This document shows positions 877 through 23,846 of a stretch of 64,000 nt of DNA, piece by piece; within the stretch, counting starts at the first letter, position 1; every line of letters begins with the position of its first letter. The stretch covers positions 102,501-166,500 of the forward strand of contig JBAYWG010000001.1 in assembly GCA_041674225.1 (NCBI GenBank), given 5' to 3'. Both the position numbers and the translations under genes were made by a program. This DNA is from Minisyncoccota bacterium. GTDB taxonomy: Bacteria > Patescibacteriota > Minisyncoccia > Phycocordibacterales > JAACPR01. The notes under the pieces are model-generated. The model saw only the letters and a list, made by a program, of their open reading frames with translations, was not told the origin of the DNA and did no database searches.

Positions 877-901
877 GTTAGGAAACAAAATATATTCATT
901 C

Positions 902-995
902 GGATATACGCGATAAAGAAAAAAGCGGGACGCAAAGCGTCCCGCTTTTTCTTTTCGCTGACGCTCGCCGTTTGGGACGGCTCCGAGACATATCC
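902..995. repeat. Structured intergenic repeat element, copy C. Core ACGCGATAAAGAAAAA, hairpin AGCGGGACG-CAAA-CGTCCCGCT, then TTTTTCTTTTCGCTGACGCTCGCC and a second hairpin, enclosed by a short outer IR GGATAT/ATATCC. The inner hairpin also serves as the rpsA terminator.
   Basis: Direct sequence comparison with the copies at 7663-7787 and 18961-19098 (reverse orientation). Flanks are conserved and the hairpin stem changes compensatorily. Confidence 0.5.
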
Positions 996-1063
996 TAAAT
1001 AATGTATTTTGTTTTAAATTTAAATTAAATTTGCAGATAAATGTTTTTGTGAAAGAAAAAACC

Positions 1064-1372
1064 TCAAGATTGAGGTTCAACTACTTCCTGAGTGTCGAGT
1101 AGTTTATAAGCAATCATTTCCAAATTAGTAAATATTGCATGACACCAAGATTGTATACCATCTTCGGTCTCAAACATGCAGACATAGGGGCAGTCTACGC
1201 GAATATCGACATCAGATGAAAACGTCCATCCCACAAATCCCCAACCATCTTGTTGAAGCAGCATTTCATAAGGACTTATCCTCATGCTTCTGGAACTTTT
1301 TTCAAGTGTAAATTTAATAGCACTAAGTCTTGGCAACATCTTCAAGACATCTGTTTCTGTCAGCTCTTTCAT
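1064..1372 (-). CDS. Hypothetical small protein (102 aa), GC-elevated
   Basis: ORF with protein-like composition. No recognisable motif. Confidence 0.45.
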   Translation of the reverse strand: MKELTETDVLKMLPRLSAIKFTLEKSSRSMRISPYEMLLQQDGWGFVGWTFSSDVDIRVDCPYVCMFETEDGIQSWCHAIFTNLEMIAYKLLDTQEVVEPQS

Positions 1373-4664: not shown

Positions 4665-5045
4665 TTGATGCTAAATATTACAAACACAACAAAACAAAGT
4701 CCGATTTCGAAAGATTCGGACTTTGTTTGTATTTCAGAAAAGGTTTTAGGAAAAAGATATGATCTATCTTTAGTTTTTGTTGGTGAAAAAGCTGCAAAAA
4801 AATTAAACCAAGATTATCGAAAAGGTGATTATGTTCCAAATGTACTTTCATTTCCCCTTTCAGAAAGTGCCGGAGAAATTTTTATTTGTTTGAAAAAAAT
4901 TAAAAAAGAGTGTGAGGATTTTGAAATGACACCTGCTCAATATGAAAAATTTCTTTTCATTCACGGATGCCTCCACCTCAAAGGACACGATCATGGAGAC
5001 AAGATGGAAAAGCTAGAGAAAAAATTCATCAAGGAATTCTGCTAA
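4665..5045 (+). CDS. ybeY: Endoribonuclease YbeY (rRNA maturation factor)
   Basis: H..LHL.G.DH metal-binding motif (FIHGCLHLKGHDHGD). Confidence 0.75.
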   Translation: MMLNITNTTKQSPISKDSDFVCISEKVLGKRYDLSLVFVGEKAAKKLNQDYRKGDYVPNVLSFPLSESAGEIFICLKKIKKECEDFEMTPAQYEKFLFIHGCLHLKGHDHGDKMEKLEKKFIKEFC

Positions 5046-6436: not shown

Positions 6437-7651
6437 ATGGCACAAATAAAAACAGAAATTGAGACATTCGCACGCATCAAAGTTATTGGTGTTGGTGGTT
6501 CTGGACGAAACGCAGTTGAGCACATGATTGACTCAAAAGTTCAAGGTGTTGAATTTATTACTGTAAATACAGATGCTCAAGATTTGCATCACTCTTCTGC
6601 TAAAAGAAAAATTCATATTGGAAAAAATCTAACTAAAGGACTTGGTACAGGAATGAACCCTGAACTTGGACGTCGTGCTGTAGAAGAAACTAAAGAAGAA
6701 GTTCAAGAAGCTATCAAAGGTGCTGACATGGTTTTCATCACTTGCGGACTTGGAGGAGGAACTGGTTCTGGAGCTAGCCCAATCGTGGCATCAATCGCAA
6801 AAGAAATGGGAATCCTAACCGTTGCAGTTGTGACAAAGCCATTCTTTTTTGAAGGACAACAAAGATCACGAATTGCCGAACAAGCTTTAAACGAATTACG
6901 ACAAGAAGTTGATGCTGTGATTTGTATTCCAAACGACAGACTTCTTTCAAACATTTCAAAAGAAACTACTTCAAAAGATGCTTGGATAATGTCTGATGAT
7001 GTTTTGAAACAAGCTGTTGAAGGTATTTCATATTTGATCACAACACCTGGAAAACTAAATGTCGATTTTGCCGACATTAAAACAATTCTAAAAGATGCAG
7101 GTTCTGCGCTTATGGGAATCGGTATTGCGAGCGGAGAGAAACGAGCCGAAGAAGCTGCAAAAATGGCTATCAGCTCACCTCTTTTGGATTTGTCAGTAAA
7201 TGGTGCTCGAGGTGTACTTTACTCAATCTCTGGAGGAGACGATGTAACAATGTTTGAGCTTCAAGAAGCTTCAAAAATTATCACTAGTTCCCTAGACCCT
7301 GAAGCAAAAGTTATTTTTGGAACAATCAACGATGATAATTTGAAAAAAGGAGATTTGAAAGTGACTGTGATTGCATCTGGTTTTCCTGATGATGTTGTAA
7401 ATAAATCCTTCTTCGCGGCTTATAACCCAAGAAAAAATGTAATCGAAACTCCTACAAAACATGAAGAAGAAAGAGAAGAAGAAACTGCATCAATTCTTGA
7501 AACTCTAAAAATTTCAAAGAAGGCTGATAAAAAAGAAGAGGAGGCGCCGGCTCCAGTGGTTGAGACTAAGAAAGAAATTACAAAGTTGCAGGATGATGAG
7601 GATGATGATTGGGCTGTTCCAAACTTTTTGAGACGATCTAAAATTAAGTAA
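6437..7651 (+). CDS. ftsZ: Cell division GTPase FtsZ
   Basis: GVGGSGRNAV and GGGTGSGASP tubulin signature. Acidic C-terminal tail. Confidence 0.95.
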   Translation: MAQIKTEIETFARIKVIGVGGSGRNAVEHMIDSKVQGVEFITVNTDAQDLHHSSAKRKIHIGKNLTKGLGTGMNPELGRRAVEETKEEVQEAIKGADMVFITCGLGGGTGSGASPIVASIAKEMGILTVAVVTKPFFFEGQQRSRIAEQALNELRQEVDAVICIPNDRLLSNISKETTSKDAWIMSDDVLKQAVEGISYLITTPGKLNVDFADIKTILKDAGSALMGIGIASGEKRAEEAAKMAISSPLLDLSVNGARGVLYSISGGDDVTMFELQEASKIITSSLDPEAKVIFGTINDDNLKKGDLKVTVIASGFPDDVVNKSFFAAYNPRKNVIETPTKHEEEREEETASILETLKISKKADKKEEEAPAPVVETKKEITKLQDDEDDDWAVPNFLRRSKIK

Positions 7652-7662
7652 ATATACGCAAC

Positions 7663-7787
7663 GCAAAATATTCTGTTATTTCGTACACGCGTTAAAACAA
7701 AAATGAGATGCTCTGCATCTCATTTTTGTTTTCCGCTATGCTCGGCCATCAGGCCTGCGCAATGTACTCAATAACAGAATATTTTGC
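7663..7787. repeat. Structured intergenic repeat element, copy A. Outer 18-bp IR GCAAAATATTCTGTTATT/AATAACAGAATATTTTGC enclosing ACGCGTTAAAACAAAAA, the terminator hairpin TGAGATGC-TCTG-CATCTCA, then TTTTTGTTTTCCGCTATGCTCGGCC-ATCA-GGCC…GCGCAA.
   Basis: The inverted repeats were read directly. The core aligns with the copies at 902-995 and 18961-19098. The inner hairpin (7704-7727) is the ftsZ terminator. Confidence 0.5.
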
Positions 7788-7888
7788 TTTATATATAATT
7801 ATTATCTTTATATCGTCTTAAAATGAGTTTTTCACAATATAGATGAATTGTGATAAAATTTGAGAATTAATATCCTAAAAACATTTAT

Positions 7889-10985: not shown

Positions 10986-12368
10986 TTATAGGTACAATTG
11001 GCTTATATATTCCTTGATCCTTTGTACATCCCCCACTATGTCAGAGCTATTATTCAAAATAAATACCACAGGACGATCCTCCCCTTTGAATCTCATTTCA
11101 AAAATAACAGCCATTGAACCAGAAGTTTTTTGATCTAATTCAACCACTTCACCTTCTAAAGAAACATTTTCATCTATATCTAATTGTCCACCGATAAAAC
11201 TTTTATCTTCTGCGAACAAATTGTTTTTAAACAAATCATTAAACACAGCTACACCGTATGCACTATTTTCTAAATTCCCAGAACTAATTTTTAAAATAAA
11301 ACTTCGGTTGTTGTATAAATATTTTAGAAGCAAAAATAAATCTTGAGAAGTTGAAATATTTTCTTCACTTTCTCCAGTAGCATCTACAAAATTAGTCGAA
11401 GTCATCCCTACCGCTTTAGTTTTTTCATTCATCAAAGTCAGAAATCTTTTTTGTCCAAGCTTCGCAACAAATGCAGAAGCTGGTTCTGTTGAATCTTCCA
11501 AAAGAAGCGGGAACAAAAGATTATATGCAGACAAAACATTTCCACCTTTTAAAACAGAAGTCGATGTAGGAGAAATATTTTCAACAGGAATCATCAGGTC
11601 ATGATCTAGATTTATGTATTCACCAGACACAAGTGCTGTTAACAATTTTGTAGTTGAGCCAGCTGGGATTTGCGCGAAAGAATTTTTCTCTGTGAAAACG
11701 AAATTGTTTTTTAGATCCGCTATCAAATAATTTTCTGCCGTGATTTGCGGAGTCAGCATTGAGTATTTAAAATCATCCGACACAAAGTCTTGCTCAAAAA
11801 CTAAAACCGGCATTCCAACACTTGAGCTTTCAAAAACCTTTTTCGCATCTTCATCACTCAAACGAATACATCCTCCAGAAAAAGTTGAAGCCACAGGAGT
11901 TCCGTCTGGATAATACGGCCAACCATGAATAAAGAAGTTTCCTTCGAAAGCTAAGCTATATGGTTGATACACACTTCCAAAAGAAGAGAAATGATTTTCG
12001 GCTTTGTATTGAATTTTGTAAATTCCTGAAGGAGTCTCCCACCAAGAACCTTCACGCCCCTTTGTTTTTATCGGCACTTCAAAAGCGAATTCTCCTTCTT
12101 TATAAACTCTCAACACCATTCCAGTCAGATCCGCTTCGATGAAATCTTCTTTCCCAGTTTGCAATTTTTCTTTTGCTTTTTTGAAAAAATCAGCGTCAGC
12201 AAAAAGTGCATTTGAACCATACTCCAAAATATTTATCTTATCTTTTGCTTCACCTCCTAAAGAAAAAAATACATTCTTTTCTTTTATTAATTCTAGTTTA
12301 TAAACCAAAAATATCGCAACAAAAACCAGCGCCGCGAGCAAAGAGAATTTCACAATAAATGTTTTCAT
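10986..12368 (-). CDS. Bifunctional cell-wall enzyme: L,D-transpeptidase (YkuD) domain fused to a serine D-Ala-D-Ala carboxypeptidase (peptidase S11/PBP5-like) domain. Probable start MKTFIV…; the track ORF extends to 12428.
   Basis: HGWPYY…SGGCIRL (Ldt catalytic H/C) in the N-terminal half. PAGSTTKLLTALV (SxxK active site) in the C-terminal half. N-terminal signal anchor. Confidence 0.75.
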   Translation of the reverse strand: MKTFIVKFSLLAALVFVAIFLVYKLELIKEKNVFFSLGGEAKDKINILEYGSNALFADADFFKKAKEKLQTGKEDFIEADLTGMVLRVYKEGEFAFEVPIKTKGREGSWWETPSGIYKIQYKAENHFSSFGSVYQPYSLAFEGNFFIHGWPYYPDGTPVASTFSGGCIRLSDEDAKKVFESSSVGMPVLVFEQDFVSDDFKYSMLTPQITAENYLIADLKNNFVFTEKNSFAQIPAGSTTKLLTALVSGEYINLDHDLMIPVENISPTSTSVLKGGNVLSAYNLLFPLLLEDSTEPASAFVAKLGQKRFLTLMNEKTKAVGMTSTNFVDATGESEENISTSQDLFLLLKYLYNNRSFILKISSGNLENSAYGVAVFNDLFKNNLFAEDKSFIGGQLDIDENVSLEGEVVELDQKTSGSMAVIFEMRFKGEDRPVVFILNNSSDIVGDVQRIKEYISQLYL

Positions 12369-14499: not shown

Positions 14500-14538
14500 A
14501 CACTTCTAAAATAAGCCATTTTCTGCTAAAATCGCATA

Positions 14539-16740
14539 ATGAATGAGAAATTTTTAAACCCGTACGATCCGGCTTCTACAGAGGCTCGAATCTATAAACT
14601 CTGGGAAGAATCAGGTCTTTTTAATCCTGAAAAATGTATTGTTGAAGGACACACATCTGACAGTGCTGAACCATTCACAATCATCCTTCCTCCTCCGAAC
14701 GTAACAGGAACTCTCCACCTTGGGCACGCCGATATGGTTGCAATTCAAGACACGATTATTCGATACAAAAGAATGAGTGGTTTCAGAACACTTTGGCTTC
14801 CAGGAACAGATCACGCTGCAATTGCAACTCAATCTAAAGTTGAGAAAATTTTGTCTAAAGACGGAATTCGAAAAAATGATTTAGGTCGTGAAGAATTTTT
14901 GAAACGCGTTGAAGATTTTGCACAAGAAAGTCACGACACAATTATTTCTCAATTGAAATCTATGGGAGCTTCTCTAGATTGGAGTCGTGAAGCATATACC
15001 CTTGATAAGATTCGCGAACGAGCAGTGCAAACAGCTTTCAAAAATATGTACGAAGACGGTTTGATTTATCGCGGAGAAAGAATTGTGAACTGGGATCCAA
15101 AAGGACAAACAACAATTTCTGATGATGAAATTGTTTATGAAGAAAGAGATGCGACTCTTTATACTTTTAAATATTCACCAGACTTCCCTATTTCAATTTC
15201 AACAACTCGTCCAGAAACAAAACTTGGTGACACTGCTGTAGCTGTGCACCCAGATGATGAACGATACAAAAAATACATAGGACAAACTTTTGATGTAAAT
15301 TTTATTGGTGTTGATCTAAAAATTAAAATCGTTTCAGATGAAAATGTTGAACCTGATTTTGGAACAGGAGCTCTTGGTGTAACTCCCGCACACAGTCATA
15401 TCGATTTTGATATCGCAAAGAAAAATTCTCTTCCTTTAATAAAAGTTATCAACGAATTTGCAAAAATTTCTGAAAATATTCCTGCACCTTTTACCGGCTT
15501 GAAAGTTTTGGATGCGCGAAATCTTGTTGTAGAAAAACTTCGTGAAGCTGGATTGATTGAAAAAGAAGAAACAACAAAACAAAATATTTCAACAGCCGAA
15601 AGAACTGGCGGAATTATTGAACCACTTCCAAAACTTCAATGGTGGATTGATGTAAACAAAGAGTTTGCAATAAAAAATTCACAGATCGACGGAATAAAAA
15701 CCGGAGATAAAGTAACTCTGAAGAAACTGATGCATCAAGTGGTTGAAAATAATCAAATTGAAATTTTGCCTGAAAGATTTTCAAAAACTTACTATAACTG
15801 GATCGATAACTTGCACGACTGGTGTATATCAAGACAAATTTGGTACGGACACAGAATTCCGGTTTGGTATAAAGGGACAGAAATTTTTGTGGGTGCTGAA
15901 GCTCCGTCTTCGGAATGGATTCAAGACGAAGATACACTCGACACATGGTTTTCATCTGGACTTTGGACTTTCTCAACTCTTGGATGGCCAGACGAAACTG
16001 AAGACATGAAAATTTATCATCCAACAAATGTTTTGGAAACTGGATACGATATTATTTTCTTCTGGGTTGCGAGAATGATTTTGATGAGTACATATCACCT
16101 AGGACAAATTCCTTTTAAAACAGTTTATCTTCATGGATTAGTGCGAGATGAAAAAGGTGTGAAGATGAGTAAATCTCTTGGTAATACTATTGATCCTGTT
16201 GAAGTGGCAAACGAATACGGAGCAGACGCTGTGCGAATGGCTCTACTTGTGGGAGTTGGACCTGGAGCTGACTCAAATCTTGGTGAAAACAAAATCAAAG
16301 CATACAAAAAGTTTTCAAATAAAATTTGGAACATTGCTAGATTTATTCAAGAAAATGTTGGTAACAGCTTATACAATCCAAATTACACACTTACAAATAT
16401 CGACAAAATTACTCTCGAAGAACTTACAGCCACAATCGCCGAAGTCACAGACGATATCGAAAATTACCGATTATATCTTGCAAGTGAAAAACTTTATCAT
16501 TTCACGTGGCATAAATTTGCAGATGAAATTTTGGAAGAAAGTAAAAATATTTTTAAAACTGATATTGAAGCAGAAATTGAATCTCGAAAACAACTTCTAA
16601 TGAGAATGTTTGATAATTTATTAAAAACGCTTCACCCATTTATTCCGTTTATAACTGAAGAAATTAATCAATCTTTGTCGTACAATAATGACAAGACTCT
16701 ATTAATGGTACAAAAGTGGCCATTGTTGTCTGATAAATAA
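14539..16740 (+). CDS. valS: Valine--tRNA ligase (compact form)
   Basis: PPPNVTGTLHLGHA (HIGH region, ValRS type) and KMSKSLGN. Confidence 0.85.
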   Translation: MNEKFLNPYDPASTEARIYKLWEESGLFNPEKCIVEGHTSDSAEPFTIILPPPNVTGTLHLGHADMVAIQDTIIRYKRMSGFRTLWLPGTDHAAIATQSKVEKILSKDGIRKNDLGREEFLKRVEDFAQESHDTIISQLKSMGASLDWSREAYTLDKIRERAVQTAFKNMYEDGLIYRGERIVNWDPKGQTTISDDEIVYEERDATLYTFKYSPDFPISISTTRPETKLGDTAVAVHPDDERYKKYIGQTFDVNFIGVDLKIKIVSDENVEPDFGTGALGVTPAHSHIDFDIAKKNSLPLIKVINEFAKISENIPAPFTGLKVLDARNLVVEKLREAGLIEKEETTKQNISTAERTGGIIEPLPKLQWWIDVNKEFAIKNSQIDGIKTGDKVTLKKLMHQVVENNQIEILPERFSKTYYNWIDNLHDWCISRQIWYGHRIPVWYKGTEIFVGAEAPSSEWIQDEDTLDTWFSSGLWTFSTLGWPDETEDMKIYHPTNVLETGYDIIFFWVARMILMSTYHLGQIPFKTVYLHGLVRDEKGVKMSKSLGNTIDPVEVANEYGADAVRMALLVGVGPGADSNLGENKIKAYKKFSNKIWNIARFIQENVGNSLYNPNYTLTNIDKITLEELTATIAEVTDDIENYRLYLASEKLYHFTWHKFADEILEESKNIFKTDIEAEIESRKQLLMRMFDNLLKTLHPFIPFITEEINQSLSYNNDKTLLMVQKWPLLSDK

Positions 16741-17483
16741 TGTTTGACACACCAACTATAATTTTTACTTTAACAGGTGGAATCCTTCCCGCTTTAATTT
16801 GGTTAACTTTTTGGCTAAGAGAAGATTCTATCCACCCTGAACCAAAGAAGCTAATCTTTACTACTTTTGTTTTTGGAATGTTAACAGTGCCATGTGCATT
16901 GGCATTTCAACTTTTAGTAAATAAATTTTTATTTGTTGGAGCAGATGTTCACACGATTTTTGAAAATACAATTGCGTTTTCAATTCCGGGAATATTGATG
17001 CTTATCGTGTGGGCATTGTCTGAAGAATTTGCAAAATATTTTGCCGCTTATCATGGAGGATTAAAAAAAGAAGACAATGATGAAGCTGTTGATGACATGA
17101 TTTACATGATTAGTGCAGCTCTTGGTTTTGCTGCATTAGAAAATGCATTATTTATTTTTGGACCTCTTCTAACTGGCGACACTGAAATTGCAATCTCGAC
17201 AGGAAATCTAAGATTTATTGGAGCAACACTTCTACATGTGGCAACTGCTTCTATTATCGGTGCGTTTCGTGCTTTTTCTCATTTCAAAACTAATGAAATT
17301 AAAAAAACATATATATTCAGTGGGTTTATTATTGCAATTGCGTTGCATACTGCGTTTAATTTATTTATAATTAAAAATGCTGAAGGCGCATTTATGGCTT
17401 TCTCCACTGTTTGGATTATCATAATAATTATTATTTTAATTTTTGAACGCGTGAAGAAAATTTACGTAGAAAAAATAAAATAA
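16740..17483 (+). CDS. PrsW-family intramembrane protease-like membrane protein
   Basis: Polytopic protein with SEEFAKYFAAYHG (EExxK…FxxxH) motifs. Start overlaps the valS stop (TAATG). Confidence 0.6.
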   Translation: MFDTPTIIFTLTGGILPALIWLTFWLREDSIHPEPKKLIFTTFVFGMLTVPCALAFQLLVNKFLFVGADVHTIFENTIAFSIPGILMLIVWALSEEFAKYFAAYHGGLKKEDNDEAVDDMIYMISAALGFAALENALFIFGPLLTGDTEIAISTGNLRFIGATLLHVATASIIGAFRAFSHFKTNEIKKTYIFSGFIIAIALHTAFNLFIIKNAEGAFMAFSTVWIIIIIIILIFERVKKIYVEKIK

Positions 17484-17498
17484 ATCATCTTTTAAAAT

Positions 17499-18026
17499 AT
17501 GCTTAGAAAAAATAACAAAAAAAGATCTTTTTTTGAAAAATTAACTGGAGTTGTTCCAGCTGATGATTTTGATGATTTTGATTTTGAAGAGAGAGAAGCT
17601 CCTACAAGACAAGCGCCAAGAAGATTTTATGAAGAATCTATAGATGAAGAAGAAAATTCCTTTGATTCTGAAATTGATCACCCACAACCCACTCAAGACG
17701 GTCAATTGGCTGTTGATGTTTTAAATACAGACGATGCAATTATCGTGCGTGCAATGCTGGCTGGTGTTAAACCGTCTGATATTGATATCGATATCGCTCG
17801 AGACCTGGTGACAATCCGCGGAACCAGACAAGAAGAACACGAGGTATCTGAAGACAACTACTACCATAAAGAGCTTTTCTGGGGTTCATTTTCAAGAAAC
17901 ATCCTACTACCAGAAGAAATCGATGTAGATCAGGCTGAAGCTATCGAAAAGAATGGTCTTTTAGTCCTGAAACTGCCCAAATTAGACAAAAAAAGGAAGG
18001 CAAAGCTGATTGTGAAAGGAAAGTAA
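17499..18026 (+). CDS. Hsp20/alpha-crystallin small heat-shock protein
   Basis: ACD signature AVDV..T.D…V…LAGV…DI.I…L.I.G, …G.L.L.LPK. Confidence 0.8.
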   Translation: MLRKNNKKRSFFEKLTGVVPADDFDDFDFEEREAPTRQAPRRFYEESIDEEENSFDSEIDHPQPTQDGQLAVDVLNTDDAIIVRAMLAGVKPSDIDIDIARDLVTIRGTRQEEHEVSEDNYYHKELFWGSFSRNILLPEEIDVDQAEAIEKNGLLVLKLPKLDKKRKAKLIVKGK

Positions 18027-18028
18027 AA

Positions 18029-18053
18029 AATGGCCCATTTGGGGCCATTTTCG
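18029..18053 (+). terminator. Rho-independent terminator AATGGCCC-ATTTG-GGGCCATT followed by TTT
   Basis: GC stem plus T-run after the Hsp20 gene. Confidence 0.6.
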
Positions 18054-18073
18054 CTTCTAAAACTTAAATTTTA

Positions 18074-18149
18074 TGGTGTCAGGAGGCGGGCTCGAACCGC
18101 CGACCCTTCCCTCTTCAGGGGAATGCTCTACCAACTGAGCTATCCTGAC
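18074..18149 (-). tRNA. tRNA-Phe (anticodon GAA), 76 nt with encoded CCA
   Basis: Acceptor GTCAGGA/TCCTGAC, D arm GCTC-AGTTGGTAG-AGC, anticodon loop CT-GAA-GA, T arm GGCGG-TTCGAGC-CCGCC, ACCA 3' end. Confidence 0.9.
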
Positions 18150-18155
18150 GTGTGA

Positions 18156-18473
18156 TTATTCTGAGCCTCCAATTCTAAATGTTTGAAGCAGATTCTGCAA
18201 CCCCGACGAATCCAGTGCAGTATTTGTCTGAGTTTTAAACTGGTTCACACTTTCTGTAGTTTCTTGAATCTGAGCGTACATCATTAACATTTTTTCAAAG
18301 TATGGCTGGATCAAAACCCAAGACCAGATTGTAATAATAATTAGAATAATCCATTTTAGAGAATGAATTATGTTTCCAATAAATTGCCCCCTCCGCATTT
18401 TTCGAAGGATCTGATTATTTTCTTTTGCGAGATCTGCTGTTTCTTGAAGTAGTCTTTTTTCTTCGGGTGTCAT
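18156..18473 (-). CDS. Hypothetical membrane protein (105 aa)
   Basis: ORF with one TM segment. Confidence 0.45.
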   Translation of the reverse strand: MTPEEKRLLQETADLAKENNQILRKMRRGQFIGNIIHSLKWIILIIITIWSWVLIQPYFEKMLMMYAQIQETTESVNQFKTQTNTALDSSGLQNLLQTFRIGGSE

Positions 18474-18550
18474 TAGAGTATTTTAACAGATTTTTAAAAG
18501 AATTGCATGAGGAATATTTATTTGGTAATTTAATTCTAAATTTGAATCAT

Positions 18551-18823
18551 ATGAACATAAGTTTCTTTATGGAACACCCTTGTGGTAGAGGTTTGATTGT
18601 AGACAACGCTGTTATTTTTTCCATAACAACACACCAATACAATCAACTATCGATTTCTGAAAAAGCTTTTGTAACTTGGTATATCAACGAAACAAATCAA
18701 GGTATGCTTGGATTACAAATAGGTCAGGATATTCAAAATTCTCACGAGGTAAGTCTCTTGATGGATGCACCTCAAGAATATCTCTGTGCGGTATTCATGA
18801 AATTGATTCTTTCCAAATCTTAA
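18551..18823 (+). CDS. Possible small protein (~90 aa from MNISFF…) with its own downstream terminator. Alternatively a non-coding transcript.
   Basis: ORF on the plus strand ends 4 nt before a plus-strand terminator (18827-18860). No homology recognised. Confidence 0.3.
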   Translation: MNISFFMEHPCGRGLIVDNAVIFSITTHQYNQLSISEKAFVTWYINETNQGMLGLQIGQDIQNSHEVSLLMDAPQEYLCAVFMKLILSKS

Positions 18824-18826
18824 CCC

Positions 18827-18860
18827 AAGACCTCCGAGTAAAATCGTGAGGTCTTTTTTA
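18827..18860 (+). terminator. Rho-independent terminator AAGACCTC-(13 nt)-GAGGTCTT + TTTTTT
   Basis: Stem plus a plus-strand T-run. Confidence 0.55.
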
Positions 18861-18864
18861 TTTG

Positions 18865-18936
18865 TGCCCTCGCCAGGAATCGAACCCAGAATTATCCCTT
18901 AGGACGGGACAGTTATATCCATTTAACTACGAGGGC
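18865..18936 (-). tRNA. tRNA-Arg (anticodon CCU by hand fold), 72 nt
   Basis: Acceptor GCCCTCG/CGAGGGC perfect. D arm GTTA/TAAC. Anticodon stem GTCCC/GGGAT with loop GT-CCT-AA. T arm CTGGG-TTCGATT-CCTGG (two G-U). The anticodon call is less certain than the tRNA call. Confidence 0.75.
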
Positions 18937-18960
18937 GTCTGTGTAATCTAACATTAATTT

Positions 18961-19098
18961 TTAAAACAAAAAATCATCGTTTGAATACGTTGCGGAGCCG
19001 TACCCAACGGCGAGCATCAGCGAAAAGAAAAACAGCGAACATAAATGTTCGCTGTTTTTCTTTATCGCGTGTATTCAAACGCTGATTTTTTGTTTTAA
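18961..19098. repeat. Structured intergenic repeat element, copy B (reverse orientation). Outer 29-bp imperfect IR TTAAAACAAAAAATCATCGTTTGAATACG / CGTGTATTCAAACGCTGATTTTTTGTTTTAA enclosing hairpin GCCGT-ACCCA-ACGGC and the bidirectional terminator CAGCGAACA-TAAA-TGTTCGCTG flanked by an A-run and a T-run.
   Basis: Its reverse complement aligns with the copy at 902-995: flanks CGCGATAAAGAAAAA … TTTTTCTTTTCGCTGATGCTCGCCGTTGGGTACGGCTCCG are identical or near-identical, while the central hairpin stems differ compensatorily. Confidence 0.5.
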
Positions 19099-19101
19099 AA
19101 A

Positions 19102-19341
19102 CTAGTCTTGAATCTCCAAAAGTTCTCGTAGTTTAGGTTGATCAAAACCTACAACGATCTCCCCTTCGACATCAATAACTGGAACTCCCATTTGCCCACT
19201 CTTCTCCACCATTTCACTTCTCTTTGCTTCATCAACTGAAACATCAAACTCTGTGTACTCTACTCCTTTTTCTTGAAAAAATTCCTTTGCCATTTTGCAG
19301 TATTGGCAAGTTGGAGTTGTATAAACTGAAACTGTTTTCAT
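19102..19341 (-). CDS. Glutaredoxin-like protein (NrdH/Grx family)
   Basis: CQYC active site in a thioredoxin-fold context (TPTCQYCKMAKEF…GVPVI). Confidence 0.75.
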   Translation of the reverse strand: MKTVSVYTTPTCQYCKMAKEFFQEKGVEYTEFDVSVDEAKRSEMVEKSGQMGVPVIDVEGEIVVGFDQPKLRELLEIQD

Positions 19342-19402
19342 AAATAAATCTTATTATCAATAATAATTGCCAAAATATTTTAACACACCGAAAAGTATTC
19401 AA

Positions 19403-19786
19403 CTATTGAAACCAACCTCCAATCGTGGTAAAAAAATTGCCAAAAAATCCTTTTTCTTCTACCACAATCTCCTCTGTAACCTTGTCTTCAACAATAACAA
19501 TCAATTTCTCACCTTCTCTTGCCACATCAAATTTAGATCTGATTTCTTTCTCTATACCAGTTTCTGTTTGTAGTTTTTCGATCTTAGCTTCGATTGTTTG
19601 TTTCTTTTCTTCAAGAACTGTCAGATCTGCTTGTGAATTTTCTAGTTCGCTTTTACTCAAAGAATATTTTTTATAAACTCCCCAAGAACCTTTTGCGACA
19701 AAAAATAAAATGATACACAGTAAAATCAAAACCGGCACCGAAAATATCATTTGACGAACTTTTCTTTTTCTACTAAATTCTCGCAT
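19403..19786 (-). CDS. FtsB/DivIC-like septum formation initiator
   Basis: N-terminal TM, coiled-coil (…LENSQADLTVLEEKKQTIEAKIEKLQ…), then the …FDVAREGEKLIVI motif. Confidence 0.6.
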   Translation of the reverse strand: MREFSRKRKVRQMIFSVPVLILLCIILFFVAKGSWGVYKKYSLSKSELENSQADLTVLEEKKQTIEAKIEKLQTETGIEKEIRSKFDVAREGEKLIVIVEDKVTEEIVVEEKGFFGNFFTTIGGWFQ

Positions 19787-19963
19787 TGTTTTAGTCTTGA
19801 TTTTGAATTATAATAGTGCATTATAACACCATTATGTCTATTTTATTTCATCAAAAAAGCAGAAAAATTATCAAAGTACTTTTCGGAATCTTGTCAGTGA
19901 TTATTATTATATCTATGGTTTTCGCTTACGCTCCGGGTTTCTTTCTATAAAACTGATCCAATA

Positions 19964-21760
19964 TTAATCATTCCGCATCATCTTCAAGAAAATATCTTGT
20001 CCAATATGAACTTTCGCCATACTTTGCATTTTCTTCTTTCCCTTCTTTTGCTTTTCTCGTAGTTTCATTTTTCGAGTGATATCTCCACCATACATGTGAG
20101 CTGTAACATTTTTCTTCAAGGCAGAAAGTGTTTTAGAAGAAACAATCTTCCCCATCGCTTTGGCTTGAATTTTTGTCACAAACATTTGTCTTGGCAAAAT
20201 TTTTGCTAGTCTCTCTACCATATGTTCAGATTCCTCTTGAATTCTCATCAAAGAAACAACTCTAGTAAAAGCAACAACAGGTTCTTCGGCTACAAGTAAT
20301 TCCAATTTTGTCACAGTAGCTGATTTGAATTCACCGATCTCATAAGAAAGTGAAGCATACCCAGAAGATGCACTTTTAATTTCATCAAAAAAGTTTCTCA
20401 TCAATTCTCGAAGAGGCATTTCGATATTCAAAGCATTTCTTTTTGTTCCCAAGTTTTCTGTCGAACCAATAATTGCTTCATGCTTAAATAAAATTTGCAT
20501 AATATCACCCACGTATTCCGGTGGTGTAATAATTCTCATTGTAATCCAAGGTTCCTCGACTTCAGCCACGTCACCGTGATCTGGAAAAAGTGCAGGAGAA
20601 TAAATTGTTTTCAACTCACCTCGCTTCGTCAAAACTCTATAAGTAATAGAAGGCAAAGTCACAACTAACTCCAATTTAAATTCACGACGAAGTCTTTCTG
20701 TAATAATTTCTAGATGAAGCATTCCCAAAAATCCACATCTAAATCCTCGTCCAAGTGTTCCAGAAGATTCTTCTTCAAAAGTATATGAAGCATCAGAAAG
20801 TTTTAATCTCAAAAGTGCTTGTCTCAAAAAATCAAAATCGTCTTGGCTTTCTGGGAAAATACTTGCCCACACAACTGGATTTGGTGCATCGTATCCAGGA
20901 ATTGCTTCCGCATTGCTTCCTGAACGCACAATAGTATCTCCAACAGACGCAATTCCAGGTTCTTTAATTCCTGTCACAATATAACCAATTTCTCCAGCTT
21001 GAAGACTTTCTGTCGCAACCTCATCTGGTTTAAAAAATCCAACTTCCAATCCACTGAAATCTTTTCCAGCAATTTTGAAATGCATCGGCATTGCTCTCTT
21101 GGCACAACCATCAAGCACACGAATAAAAACAACTACACCTTTATGATTTGAATATTGAAAATCAAAAATCAATGCGCGGAAATCTTTTTCATCAGAACTT
21201 TTTGAAACAGGTGCTGGCACTCTTTTAATAATTTCTGCTAAAAGTTCTGGTACACCAATACCAGTTTTTCCTGAAGTTAAAATTATTTCACTTTCATCAC
21301 ATTGCAACAAATCACAAACTTCACTCACCACTTCATCAATTCTGGCCAGAGGAGAATCTACTTTCGAAAGCACAGGAATAATTTTTGCACCTCTTTGTCT
21401 AGCGGTTTCTAGAGTTGTCAGAGTTTGCGCTTGCACACCTTGTGTAGCATCTACCAAAAGAATTGAACCCTCCACAGCTTCTAGAGCTCGAGAAACTTCA
21501 TAAGAAAAGTCGATATGCCCAGGAGTATCAATCAAATTTAAAATATAGTCTTGACCCTCAAAATTGTATTCCATCCTTACAGGACGCATTTTAATAGTGA
21601 TACCTCTTTCTCTTTCAAGCTCCATATTATCCAAAATACGGTCTTGCATTTTTCGTTTATCAATCGTTTTTGTTTCCTCAAGCATTCTATCGGCAAGCGT
21701 AGACTTCCCGTGATCAATGTGAGCGATTATTGAAAAATTTCTAATGTGTTTTAAATCCAT
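19964..21760 (-). CDS. lepA: Elongation factor 4 (LepA)
   Basis: G1 AHIDHGKST, DTPGH, NKID. LepA-specific C-terminal domain. Confidence 0.95.
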   Translation of the reverse strand: MDLKHIRNFSIIAHIDHGKSTLADRMLEETKTIDKRKMQDRILDNMELERERGITIKMRPVRMEYNFEGQDYILNLIDTPGHIDFSYEVSRALEAVEGSILLVDATQGVQAQTLTTLETARQRGAKIIPVLSKVDSPLARIDEVVSEVCDLLQCDESEIILTSGKTGIGVPELLAEIIKRVPAPVSKSSDEKDFRALIFDFQYSNHKGVVVFIRVLDGCAKRAMPMHFKIAGKDFSGLEVGFFKPDEVATESLQAGEIGYIVTGIKEPGIASVGDTIVRSGSNAEAIPGYDAPNPVVWASIFPESQDDFDFLRQALLRLKLSDASYTFEEESSGTLGRGFRCGFLGMLHLEIITERLRREFKLELVVTLPSITYRVLTKRGELKTIYSPALFPDHGDVAEVEEPWITMRIITPPEYVGDIMQILFKHEAIIGSTENLGTKRNALNIEMPLRELMRNFFDEIKSASSGYASLSYEIGEFKSATVTKLELLVAEEPVVAFTRVVSLMRIQEESEHMVERLAKILPRQMFVTKIQAKAMGKIVSSKTLSALKKNVTAHMYGGDITRKMKLREKQKKGKKKMQSMAKVHIGQDIFLKMMRND

Positions 21761-23520: not shown

Positions 23521-23529
23521 TCCCATTTT

Positions 23530-23846
23530 TTAGTCATATCCGTAAGCCGAATTCTGTTTTATGTGATCATTTATCTAGGCCGCGCCTTACGGCGCGACTC
23601 AAGCGACTCTCTGATATAAAATCAGCACGGTCTTGCATTCAAGTAAGGATTTTGCCGTTTCACTTTTGCATTTCTGCAAAACTCATCCCGAAGGATGCCA
23701 CTTTCTTTCGTCTGTGGCGTCTCTGCTCGCACCTCTTGGATCACTCCAGACGGGCGTTACCCGCTACCCTTTTTCACAGCTTTACTATGAGAATGTTCGG
23801 ACTTTCCACACTCTTGCGAGCGCGATCACTCAATATGACTTTCGGT
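23530..23846 (-). ncRNA. rnpB: RNase P RNA, bacterial type A, reduced size (~317 nt)
   Basis: The minus strand reads …AGUCAUAUUGAGUGAUCGCGCUCGCAAGAGUGUGGAAAGUCCGAACAUUCUCAUAG…GGGUAGCGGGUAACGCCCGUC… GGCCUAGAUAAAUGAUCACAUAAAACAGAAUUCGGCUUACGGAUAUGACU. This matches the universal P4 strands (GGAAAGUCCG / ACAGAA..CGGCUUA), the CAUAG and GGUAACGCC segments and the CCUAGAU.AAUGA…ACAGAA 3' region of E. coli M1 RNA. P1 pairs AGUCAUAU with AUAUGACU. Confidence 0.85.

Follow-up and report, generated by a model that had tools for sequence, protein, structure and literature searches.

The candidate phyla radiation (CPR, or Patescibacteria) comprises bacteria with tiny genomes, in which very few non-coding elements have been described. 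We analysed a 64-kb stretch of DNA from a Minisyncoccota bacterium (contig JBAYWG010000001.1; hereafter the window, with 1-based positions), in which three intergenic spacers each hold a copy of a long palindromic element. The copy at 902 lies between convergent genes, an S1-domain gene ending at 876 (+) and an open reading frame (ORF) of 102 aa at 1064-1372 (-); copy A directly follows ftsZ and is followed in turn by a trxB-like gene; and copy C, on the reverse strand, lies after a glutaredoxin-like gene (79 aa, 19102-19341, -) and before tRNA-Arg (18864-18936, -). Together with their counterparts in related genomes, these copies make up a genuine family of Y-shaped elements in which a terminator is embedded, a family that is under selection and restricted to one lineage. 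An earlier interpretation made from the letters of the window (the sequence-only reading) had placed all three copies after highly expressed genes or tRNAs, a description that does not fit copy C and is unsupported as regards high expression.

The core that this reading had recognized in the three loci proved to be specific: the pattern ACGCGWTAAA-N(20-50)-TTTTC-NNNN-AYGCTCGSC occurs exactly three times in the window and not once in 100 dinucleotide-preserving shuffles, and the non-A/T core, GCTGATGCTCGCCGTTTGGGACGGCTCCGCAAC, is conserved among copies. A fourth, weak match to the pattern (19919-19936) falls within a small ORF that resembles a membrane-protein gene and was discarded as chance, and a search of the window with a covariance model (R1; 122 positions, 51 pairs) returned no copy beyond the three. 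Each copy is enclosed in an outer inverted repeat, as had been claimed, and these repeats are longer than the 18, 29 and 6 bp first reported for copy A, copy C and the copy at 902: they measure 39 nt (82% complementarity, 7649-7687/7763-7801), 39 nt (90%, 18950-18988/19071-19109) and 25 nt (84%, 883-907/990-1014), respectively, and all rank among the four longest such repeats of the window.

Related genomes carry the same element. Counting the window and loci from about 10 related CPR contigs or metagenome-assembled genomes (MAGs; the loci are numbered L003, L004 and so on), we arrive at 23 distinct copies, which occupy 7 independent sites and have covariance-model scores of 49-133 bits. Pattern scans gave genuine copies in MAG CAZVRT01 (four), MAG JAGOTN01 (one) and metagenome contigs of the Joint Genome Institute (five); model R1, run on the fetched loci, added two that the pattern scan had missed, and FtsZ-anchored loci of relatives contributed others. 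Five loci (L006, L008, L011, L013 and L014) were dropped as chance pattern matches in unrelated, mostly higher-GC DNA. The copy at 902 has nine orthologous copies in other loci, and copy C has orthologues at L003 2235-2356 and in L007. The syntenic genomes that bear the element, which we term family A, have FtsZ proteins 82-88% identical, and no family-A copy was found in relatives with FtsZ identity of 75% or less; the family is specific to a narrow clade of CPR bacteria labelled Paceibacterota. The labels themselves conflict, as the FtsZ identical to that of the window (encoded at 6437-7651) is assigned to Candidatus Paceibacterota at NCBI and the closely related MAG CAZVRT01 to Candidatus Saccharibacteria. 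Literature searches on repeats or structured RNAs of CPR bacteria and Saccharibacteria returned no description of such elements. Two of the related loci have peculiarities of their own: in L021 the gyrA, S1-domain, ftsA and trxB-like genes are each split into two ORFs, which may reflect sequencing or assembly frameshifts or pseudogenisation, and L016 contains, downstream of a NUDIX gene, a block (14527-21221) inserted relative to the window that encodes type I restriction-modification genes (N6_Mtase, Methylase_S), a resolvase and TraX and is probably a mobile island.

All copies that were folded adopt an identical minimum-energy structure, a three-way junction of about 125-160 nt (z-scores of -8 to -13; Table 1). 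The outer helix, P1, spans 25-39 bp in the window copies, continues up to 20 bp (typically 5-10) past the 20 bp that are modelled, and has a base that is A-rich on its 5' side and T-rich on its 3' side, an A-tract...T-tract layout that matches P2. P2 is a hairpin of 19-23 bp with an A-tract 5' and a U-tract 3', and P3 has a closing helix of 3 bp, an internal loop (UC/UCC) and a hairpin of 4-5 bp. The junction is invariant (AC / GCGA-U-AAA ... UUUUCGC / UGA / UGC-UC ... UCC-GCA / AC). The RNA fold of copy A (inverted repeat I2) has an energy of -62.6 kcal/mol (z = -11.6 against shuffles) and an R1 score of 86.3 bits; the corresponding values are -56.8 kcal/mol, z = -8.3 and 112.3 bits for the copy at 902 (inverted repeats I4 and I11), and -76.5 kcal/mol, z = -13.1 and 133.1 bits for copy C (I1 and I7). 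A copy in L007 (2049-2189, -) has an 18-nt tandem duplication (GCTGATGCTCGCCGTTTG twice) in the J23/P3 region, apparently from slippage, with the remaining structure intact.

Table 1. Coordinates of the elements, their helices and related structures (window positions unless a locus is named)
Feature	Position	Strand	Details
Core pattern match, copy at 902	908-969	+	pattern scan of window
Core pattern match, copy A	7687-7746	+	pattern scan of window
Core pattern match, copy C	19009-19070	-	pattern scan of window
Copy at 902, full element	883-1014	+	P1 883-907/990-1014, P2 910-958, P3 964-987
Copy A, full element	7649-7801	+	directly after ftsZ stop codon 7649-7651; P3 'type 2' variant
Copy A, P1 5' arm	7663-7687	+	pairs with 7763-7787 (fold)
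Copy A, P1 3' arm	7763-7787	+	inverted-repeat search and fold
Copy A, P2, bidirectional intrinsic-terminator hairpin	7689-7736	+	AAAACAAAAA-TGAGATGC-TCT-GCATCTCA-TTTTTGTTTT
Copy A, P3	7739-7761	+	UGC/GCA closing helix, internal loop, GGCC-AUCA-GGCC (fold)
Copy C, full element	18950-19109	-	P1 19071-19104/18955-18988, P2 19020-19068, P3 18991-19016
'Empty' HSP20 (+)/tRNA-Phe (-) site	18026-18074		plain bidirectional terminator AAAATGGCCCATTTGGGGCCATTTT, then CGCT (terminator scan)
Family B, L019 (same in L020)	4820-4905, 11215-11300		long terminator-like stem, conserved apical core, without P2
Family B, L021	11245-11330		long terminator-like stem, conserved apical core, without P2

P2 can be read as a terminator on both strands. 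Its distal stem of 8-10 bp is followed by UUUUU(C/G)UUUU in 22 of the 23 copies (the exception being the post-ftsZ copy of L017), and a mirror A-tract, AAAGAAAAA or AAAACAAAAA, sits 5' of every type-1 P2, so that the other strand also reads as a hairpin with a U-tract. In copy A, the base helix of P2 pairs CGC (7689-7691) with GCG (7734-7736), and the hairpin includes an 18-bp perfect inverted repeat (I9). A terminator scan flagged the copy at 902 and missed copies A and C, only because the U-tract is fully paired with the A-tract.

Pairing in all three helices is maintained by compensatory change. In an alignment that was fitted to the covariance model and leans towards it (A5, 1147 pair cells), 95.1% of cells hold standard pairs, compared with 69.2 ± 0.9% after shuffling and no more than 52% after sliding the partners by 1-3 columns; both sides have changed in 41 of the 51 pairs, and the covariation score is 0.629 (0.159 shuffled, at most 0.125 with slid partners). 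Twelve copies aligned by MAFFT without regard to structure agree, with 88.9% paired versus 72.4% shuffled and a score of 0.449 versus 0.169. Covariation is present in P1, P2 and P3: P3b alternates between GCCGU/ACGGC and GGCC/GGCC (the form of copy A; pair columns 80-89 with 114-124), P3a between UGC/GCA, CGC/GCG and AGC/GCU, and the conserved P2 base, GCGA/UCGC, becomes GCUG/CAGC in L003. At the S1-gene site the P2 stems form a stepwise series, GCGGGACGC, GCGAGACTC, GTGAGACAC, TACAGACAC and GAGAGACAT, each compensated on the 3' arm, and the post-ftsZ orthologues of copy A (L005, L012, L023 and L017) have a common P1 base (GCAAAATATT/AATATTTTGC) with inner P1 sequences that differ by compensated changes. 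The sequence-only reading had quoted three perfectly paired central stems and taken them as compensatory covariation, and both points stand; its description of these stems as completely different was overstated, as P2 and P1 are diverged homologues with recognizably related sequences between sites (GYGAGACRC-like P2 stems, AAAYAAAAT-like P1 bases), their pairing kept by compensation. This relatedness between sites implies that the whole unit, and not the core alone, was once dispersed. With further copies at seven sites in all and strong covariation beyond the first three copies, the proposal that these repeats form a structured family under selection, with a bidirectional terminator as its basis, rather than being chance terminators, is supported. 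We give virtually no credence to the converse idea of unrelated ordinary terminators in chance-like A/T-run context, for although this genome has many AT-rich flanks and P2, taken alone, is an ordinary terminator, it is refuted by three pattern matches against none in 100 shuffles, by 23 copies at 49-133 bits with a conserved non-A/T core, and by the covariation of P1, P2 and P3 alike.

Same-site copies in different genomes are orthologous, because the flanking coding sequence is conserved. For eight orthologues at the S1-gene site, the mean pairwise identity is 0.94, 0.97 and 0.74 at codon positions 1, 2 and 3, and the window compared with each orthologue gives identities of 0.33-0.82 for the variable stems and 0.89-0.95 for the junctions and P3. 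A nine-genome run that includes the frameshifted L021 gives mean identities of 0.56 for P1, 0.41 for the distal stem of P2, 1.00 for J12 with the P2 base, and 1.00 for J31. Set against the codon positions, these identities mean that stem sequences drift at about the neutral rate, like third codon positions, with pairing kept, and the junction and P3 are under purifying selection at a level comparable to that at non-synonymous sites.

All seven sites lie directly 3' of a stop codon, five of them between convergent genes and two between tandem genes. The convergent sites are S1 gene/102-aa ORF, HSP20/tRNA-Phe and three sites in L004, L010 and L015, and their P1 ends abut or overlap both stop codons; the tandem sites are those from ftsZ to the trxB-like gene and from the glutaredoxin-like gene to tRNA-Arg. 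At L015 5650-5788, L004 5214-5336 and L010 3960-4084 the element occupies the entire convergent spacer, and the P1 base in L015 (GGGAAATAA/TTATTTTCCC) takes in the stop codons and last codons of both converging genes. Near copy A, a promoter-like site (7771-7799, +; ATAACA-17-TATAAT) lies within the 3' arm of P1, upstream of the trxB-like gene, and a second (7831-7859, +; TTCACA-17-TAAAAT with a TG extension) lies 5' of the same gene; the two predicted sites are consistent with the trxB-like gene having its own promoter after copy A.

Simpler structures hold some of these sites in relatives. After ftsZ, plain bidirectional terminators of P2 form are found in L016 (FtsZ 87% identical), L024 (71%) and L025 (75%), for example AAAAAACAAAAAGTCTGGAT-TAT-ATCCAGATTTTTTGTTTTT, and the P2 of copy A has the same form as those of L016 and L024; L025 has a plain terminator also after its S1 gene. 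The HSP20/tRNA-Phe spacer contains a full family-A element in MAG CAZVRT01 (L003 2928-3049) and a plain terminator in the window, with a common 3' flank, GCTT(T)CTAAAA, and without clean insertion boundaries. A sister family, family B, has a long stem and an apical core without P2 and is located after ftsZ in L021 and after both ftsZ and the S1 gene in L019 and L020, positions held by family A elsewhere. Its apical core, CAACGGCUUCGG-hairpin-CCUGCAGA (also written CAACGGCTTCGG-covarying hairpin-CCTGCAGA), corresponds in alignment to the type-2 P3 region of family A; the closest agreement is with L017 (CUACGGGCUCGGCC...GGCCUCCGCAG), whose post-ftsZ copy has a P3 intermediate between the two families, and in L021 the base of P1 (CCGCAAATAATT) is similar to the one that family A has at this site (ACGCAAAATATT). 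Two sites of L019 share a 41-nt core with 100% identity but opposite orientation, atop stems whose bases resemble the plain terminators of L025. As judged from these comparisons, the sites show a turnover between plain terminator, stem with apical core and full three-way junction.

Building on the observed structure, covariation, sequence constraint, gene-end position and positional equivalence with plain terminators, we hypothesize with moderate confidence that the element is an elaborated bidirectional intrinsic terminator, or 3'-end module, of a narrow CPR clade; from this we infer that it terminates and stabilises transcripts, that it acts as RNA, and that a factor may bind it. Termination and insulation is the best-supported function, because the anatomy of P2 is bidirectional, the sites need terminators, and plain terminators substitute for the element in relatives. 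Like intrinsic (Rho-independent) bidirectional terminators, P2 has an A-tract, a GC-containing stem, a short loop and a U-tract and is readable on both strands, and like them the element lies at 3' gene ends that are mostly convergent, where the plain terminators of relatives have the same form at the same sites. Unlike ordinary terminators, which share no primary sequence, P2 is nested here in a three-way junction with a P1 of 25-39 bp and a conserved P3 and junction, and is repeated at many loci and kept across genomes.

In the mechanism that we propose, P2 would stop RNA polymerase arriving from either side, and the element would insulate adjacent, mostly convergent, transcription units and probably cap and stabilise mRNA 3' ends. 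As P2 and P3 are nested in P1, whose base is A-rich 5' and U-rich 3', read-through transcripts would fold into the Y-shaped three-way junction and then present a second U-tract. The invariant junction is most likely a folding or tertiary core, or else a putative factor-binding site. The architecture added to the terminator (P1, junction and P3) is clearly selected, and could reinforce or back up the termination of read-through transcripts, protect the 3' end as a cap, be a site of processing, or offer a platform to a binding factor. As to origin, a single unit was probably dispersed in a manner like that of miniature inverted-repeat transposable elements (MITEs), which is plausible, and would afterwards have been inherited vertically at fixed sites.

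Several observations weigh against this hypothesis. If P2 terminates efficiently, neither transcript has both arms of P1, so that selection on P1 at the RNA level requires substantial read-through. At L017 11236-11356, after ftsZ, P2 is 'flipped': its U-tract precedes the distal stem and its A-tract follows, so that it is not a terminator; and family B is found in both orientations at one and the same site. Alignment A5 has the lean already mentioned, and the strand test is suggestive at best, with 17 G.U cells (1.5% of cells) versus 9 A.C cells, a weak excess; the same rarity of G.U pairs and slight excess over A.C would be expected from a palindrome at the level of DNA or from constraint acting on both strands. 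Two P3 variants favour RNA of the element strand, that of L016 (GCUGU/AUGGC, with two G.U pairs) and that of L012 (one U.G pair), in which the helix is kept on the element strand only. An account at the level of DNA, whether a selfish palindrome kept by template switching or a protein-binding or cruciform site, is therefore a serious rival, whose main difficulty is the strong purifying selection on unpaired core nucleotides in old, syntenic copies.

The first form of that account, which we regard as possible though doubtful, holds that the element is selfish or mobile palindromic DNA, MITE-like or homing to the apex of terminator hairpins, with arms kept by intrastrand template switching or quasi-palindrome correction. 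The homology of P1, P2 and core across seven non-orthologous sites indeed points to one dispersed unit, and stem changes run nearly all from Watson-Crick to Watson-Crick pair, with few G.U intermediates; the paired, oppositely oriented cores of L019, atop terminator-like stems, are in keeping with this account, as are the HSP20/tRNA-Phe site, filled in CAZVRT01 and plain in the window, and the post-ftsZ site, which holds family A, family B or a plain terminator depending on the genome. Yet these are old copies, kept in synteny between genomes with FtsZ proteins 82-88% identical, and the unpaired junction and P3 stay 89-100% identical while stems change near-neutrally, which is purifying selection on each copy and not decay. 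The likeness to MITEs drawn by the sequence-only reading is tentative at best. Terminal inverted repeats are long in every copy, with only an AAAYAAAAT-like base common between copies and the rest differing with compensation (P1 arms are 0.56 identical), and insertion polymorphism exists, at HSP20/tRNA-Phe (window versus CAZVRT01) and in the plain post-ftsZ site of L016; no direct repeat that could be a target-site duplication is evident beside the P1 ends of 22 copies, whose flanks were read by eye. No transposase, including REP-associated tyrosine transposases (RAYTs), and no mobile-element gene was found in a Pfam scan of 20 larger window ORFs (26-56 kb) or among the precomputed Pfam domains of those fetched loci that overlap the start of the window. 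Viral contigs (IMG/VR) and phage records gave no family-A match, and 14 viral-contig matches to a family-B pattern were set aside as chance, lying in unrelated DNA, mostly of much higher G+C (0.36-0.70), without the surrounding long stem; family B, too, is thus absent from the viral contigs, and it is absent from the phage records.

A variant that we think rather unlikely treats the junction and P3 as an autonomous module of RNA or single-stranded DNA that settled at the apices of existing terminator hairpins and later became domesticated; it is suggested by a shared module that turns up at these sites in one genome after another, in either orientation and in some cases lacking the P2 arm.

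Repetitive extragenic palindromic (REP) elements are simple palindromes of 20-40 bp, with arms conserved between copies, a GTAG/CGTC tag and a RAYT transposase partner. The present element resembles enterobacterial REP elements, bacterial interspersed mosaic elements (BIMEs) and REPINs in being a repeated extragenic palindrome at 3' ends and between convergent genes; it differs in its hypervariable, compensated arms, in having a junction and P3 as its conserved part, in its branching and in its low copy number. No GTAG/CGTC tag is visible on reading the aligned copies, and P1 arms are as divergent between orthologues as stated above. The REP half of the REP/MITE-like label thus fails on the features tested (arm conservation, tag, and unbranched 20-40-bp form). 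A double role in termination and mRNA stabilisation has been proposed for REP elements, and one of them, REP325, has been shown to be both a terminator and an mRNA stabiliser (2026 preprint, bioRxiv 10.64898/2026.03.23.713779). Closer in size are the enterobacterial repetitive intergenic consensus (ERIC, or intergenic repeat unit, IRU), the Correia elements of Neisseria and the pneumococcal RUP and BOX repeats, which are likewise imperfect intergenic palindromes of 100-160 nt with long RNA hairpins, are often co-transcribed, can affect the termination, processing and stability of flanking transcripts, and are thought to be of MITE-like origin (general background and PMC3184786). In those families, however, terminal inverted repeats are conserved between copies, target-site duplications are frequent, and insertions are polymorphic at strain level, whereas the present copies keep their synteny between genomes with about 26% difference at third codon positions, have terminal arms free to vary and embed a canonical terminator. 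REP/BIME and the larger ERIC-, Correia- and RUP-type palindromic repeats are the closest functional analogues.

The second form of the DNA-level account, a protein-binding or cruciform site such as a gyrase or nucleoid-protein site relieving supercoiling between convergent genes, seems improbable to us. Relief of this kind has been proposed for E. coli BIMEs, and the placement of five of the seven sites between convergent genes would suit it, as would an invariant, sequence-specific core and symmetric stems of almost exclusively Watson-Crick pairs; but bidirectional terminators, too, are expected at convergent junctions, plain terminators hold the same sites in relatives, and the strand-specific G.U pairs in the P3 of L016 and L012 disrupt the opposite-strand hairpin of a cruciform.

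That the copies are independently transcribed small RNAs, regulatory or protein-sponging, with their own promoter and with P2 as terminator, we consider quite improbable, and the small-RNA family named as an option in the sequence-only reading is unsupported. The elements are structured, conserved and multi-copy, and permissive Rfam scans of the three window copies and the sister element did yield sub-threshold resemblances to terminator-bearing small RNAs (sraA, RmaA and TD-2); these hairpin and terminator look-alikes are far under the gathering scores (window copies at most 32 bits versus thresholds of at least 47), occur on both strands and point to the general likeness of any hairpin with a terminator. 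There is no conserved promoter upstream, the P1 ends abut flanking stop codons, P3 is downstream of the P2 terminator on the element strand, and plain terminators replace the element at the same sites. At the gathering threshold, Rfam 15, whose families include hammerhead and other three-way-junction ribozymes, riboswitches and Y RNA, found in the whole window only RNase P and three tRNAs and no match for the element. For the RNase P RNA, of bacterial class A (23527-23841, -), a score of only 113.9 bits (gathering score 100) and a length of 315 nt (367-position model) together suggest a reduced or divergent molecule, as is common in CPR bacteria.

Other identities were considered and rejected. 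Three-way-junction cis-regulatory RNAs such as purine-riboswitch-type aptamers also have a P1/P2/P3 junction, conserved junction nucleotides and covarying helices; they are, however, 5' leaders with a short, switching P1 and a terminator outside the aptamer, whereas the present element is 3' of genes, with a very long P1 and a terminator that forms one arm of the junction. The hammerhead ribozyme, suggested by the three-way junction and a 'CUGAUG' motif, was dismissed, as its CUGAUGA/GAAA core is not conserved (copies have CUAUG, CUAAUG or CUGACG) and Rfam gives no match. The P1 ends, on reading, do not have the R-box consensus of integron attC sites (RYYYAAC ... GTTRRRY), and the flanks are housekeeping (ftsZ, S1-domain gene, tRNAs), with no cassette array. 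A coding core was rejected on reading, with no conserved ORF or start codon on either strand; a DNA uptake sequence is ruled out by the mere three copies in 64 kb; and a scan and reading of the core gave no convincing -35/-10 promoter.

On present evidence, the family sits within a known kind, the repeated palindromic intergenic 3'-end elements, and is not a categorically new system. It is a candidate new RNA family, with a covariance model in hand, and a test case for distinguishing selection at the RNA level from palindrome maintenance at the DNA level. It also provides a clean natural example of terminator elaboration, from plain terminator to a stem with an apical core to a three-way junction. 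If the reading of the junction and P3 as an autonomous module is true, the family would represent a new class of structured element embedded in terminators, which would have a lineage-specific binding partner and control how 3' ends form or decay in CPR bacteria with minimal genomes. In bacteria with such tiny genomes, a repeated and structurally constrained 3'-end module retained for so long implies a function worth its cost, in transcription insulation or in the fate of mRNA.

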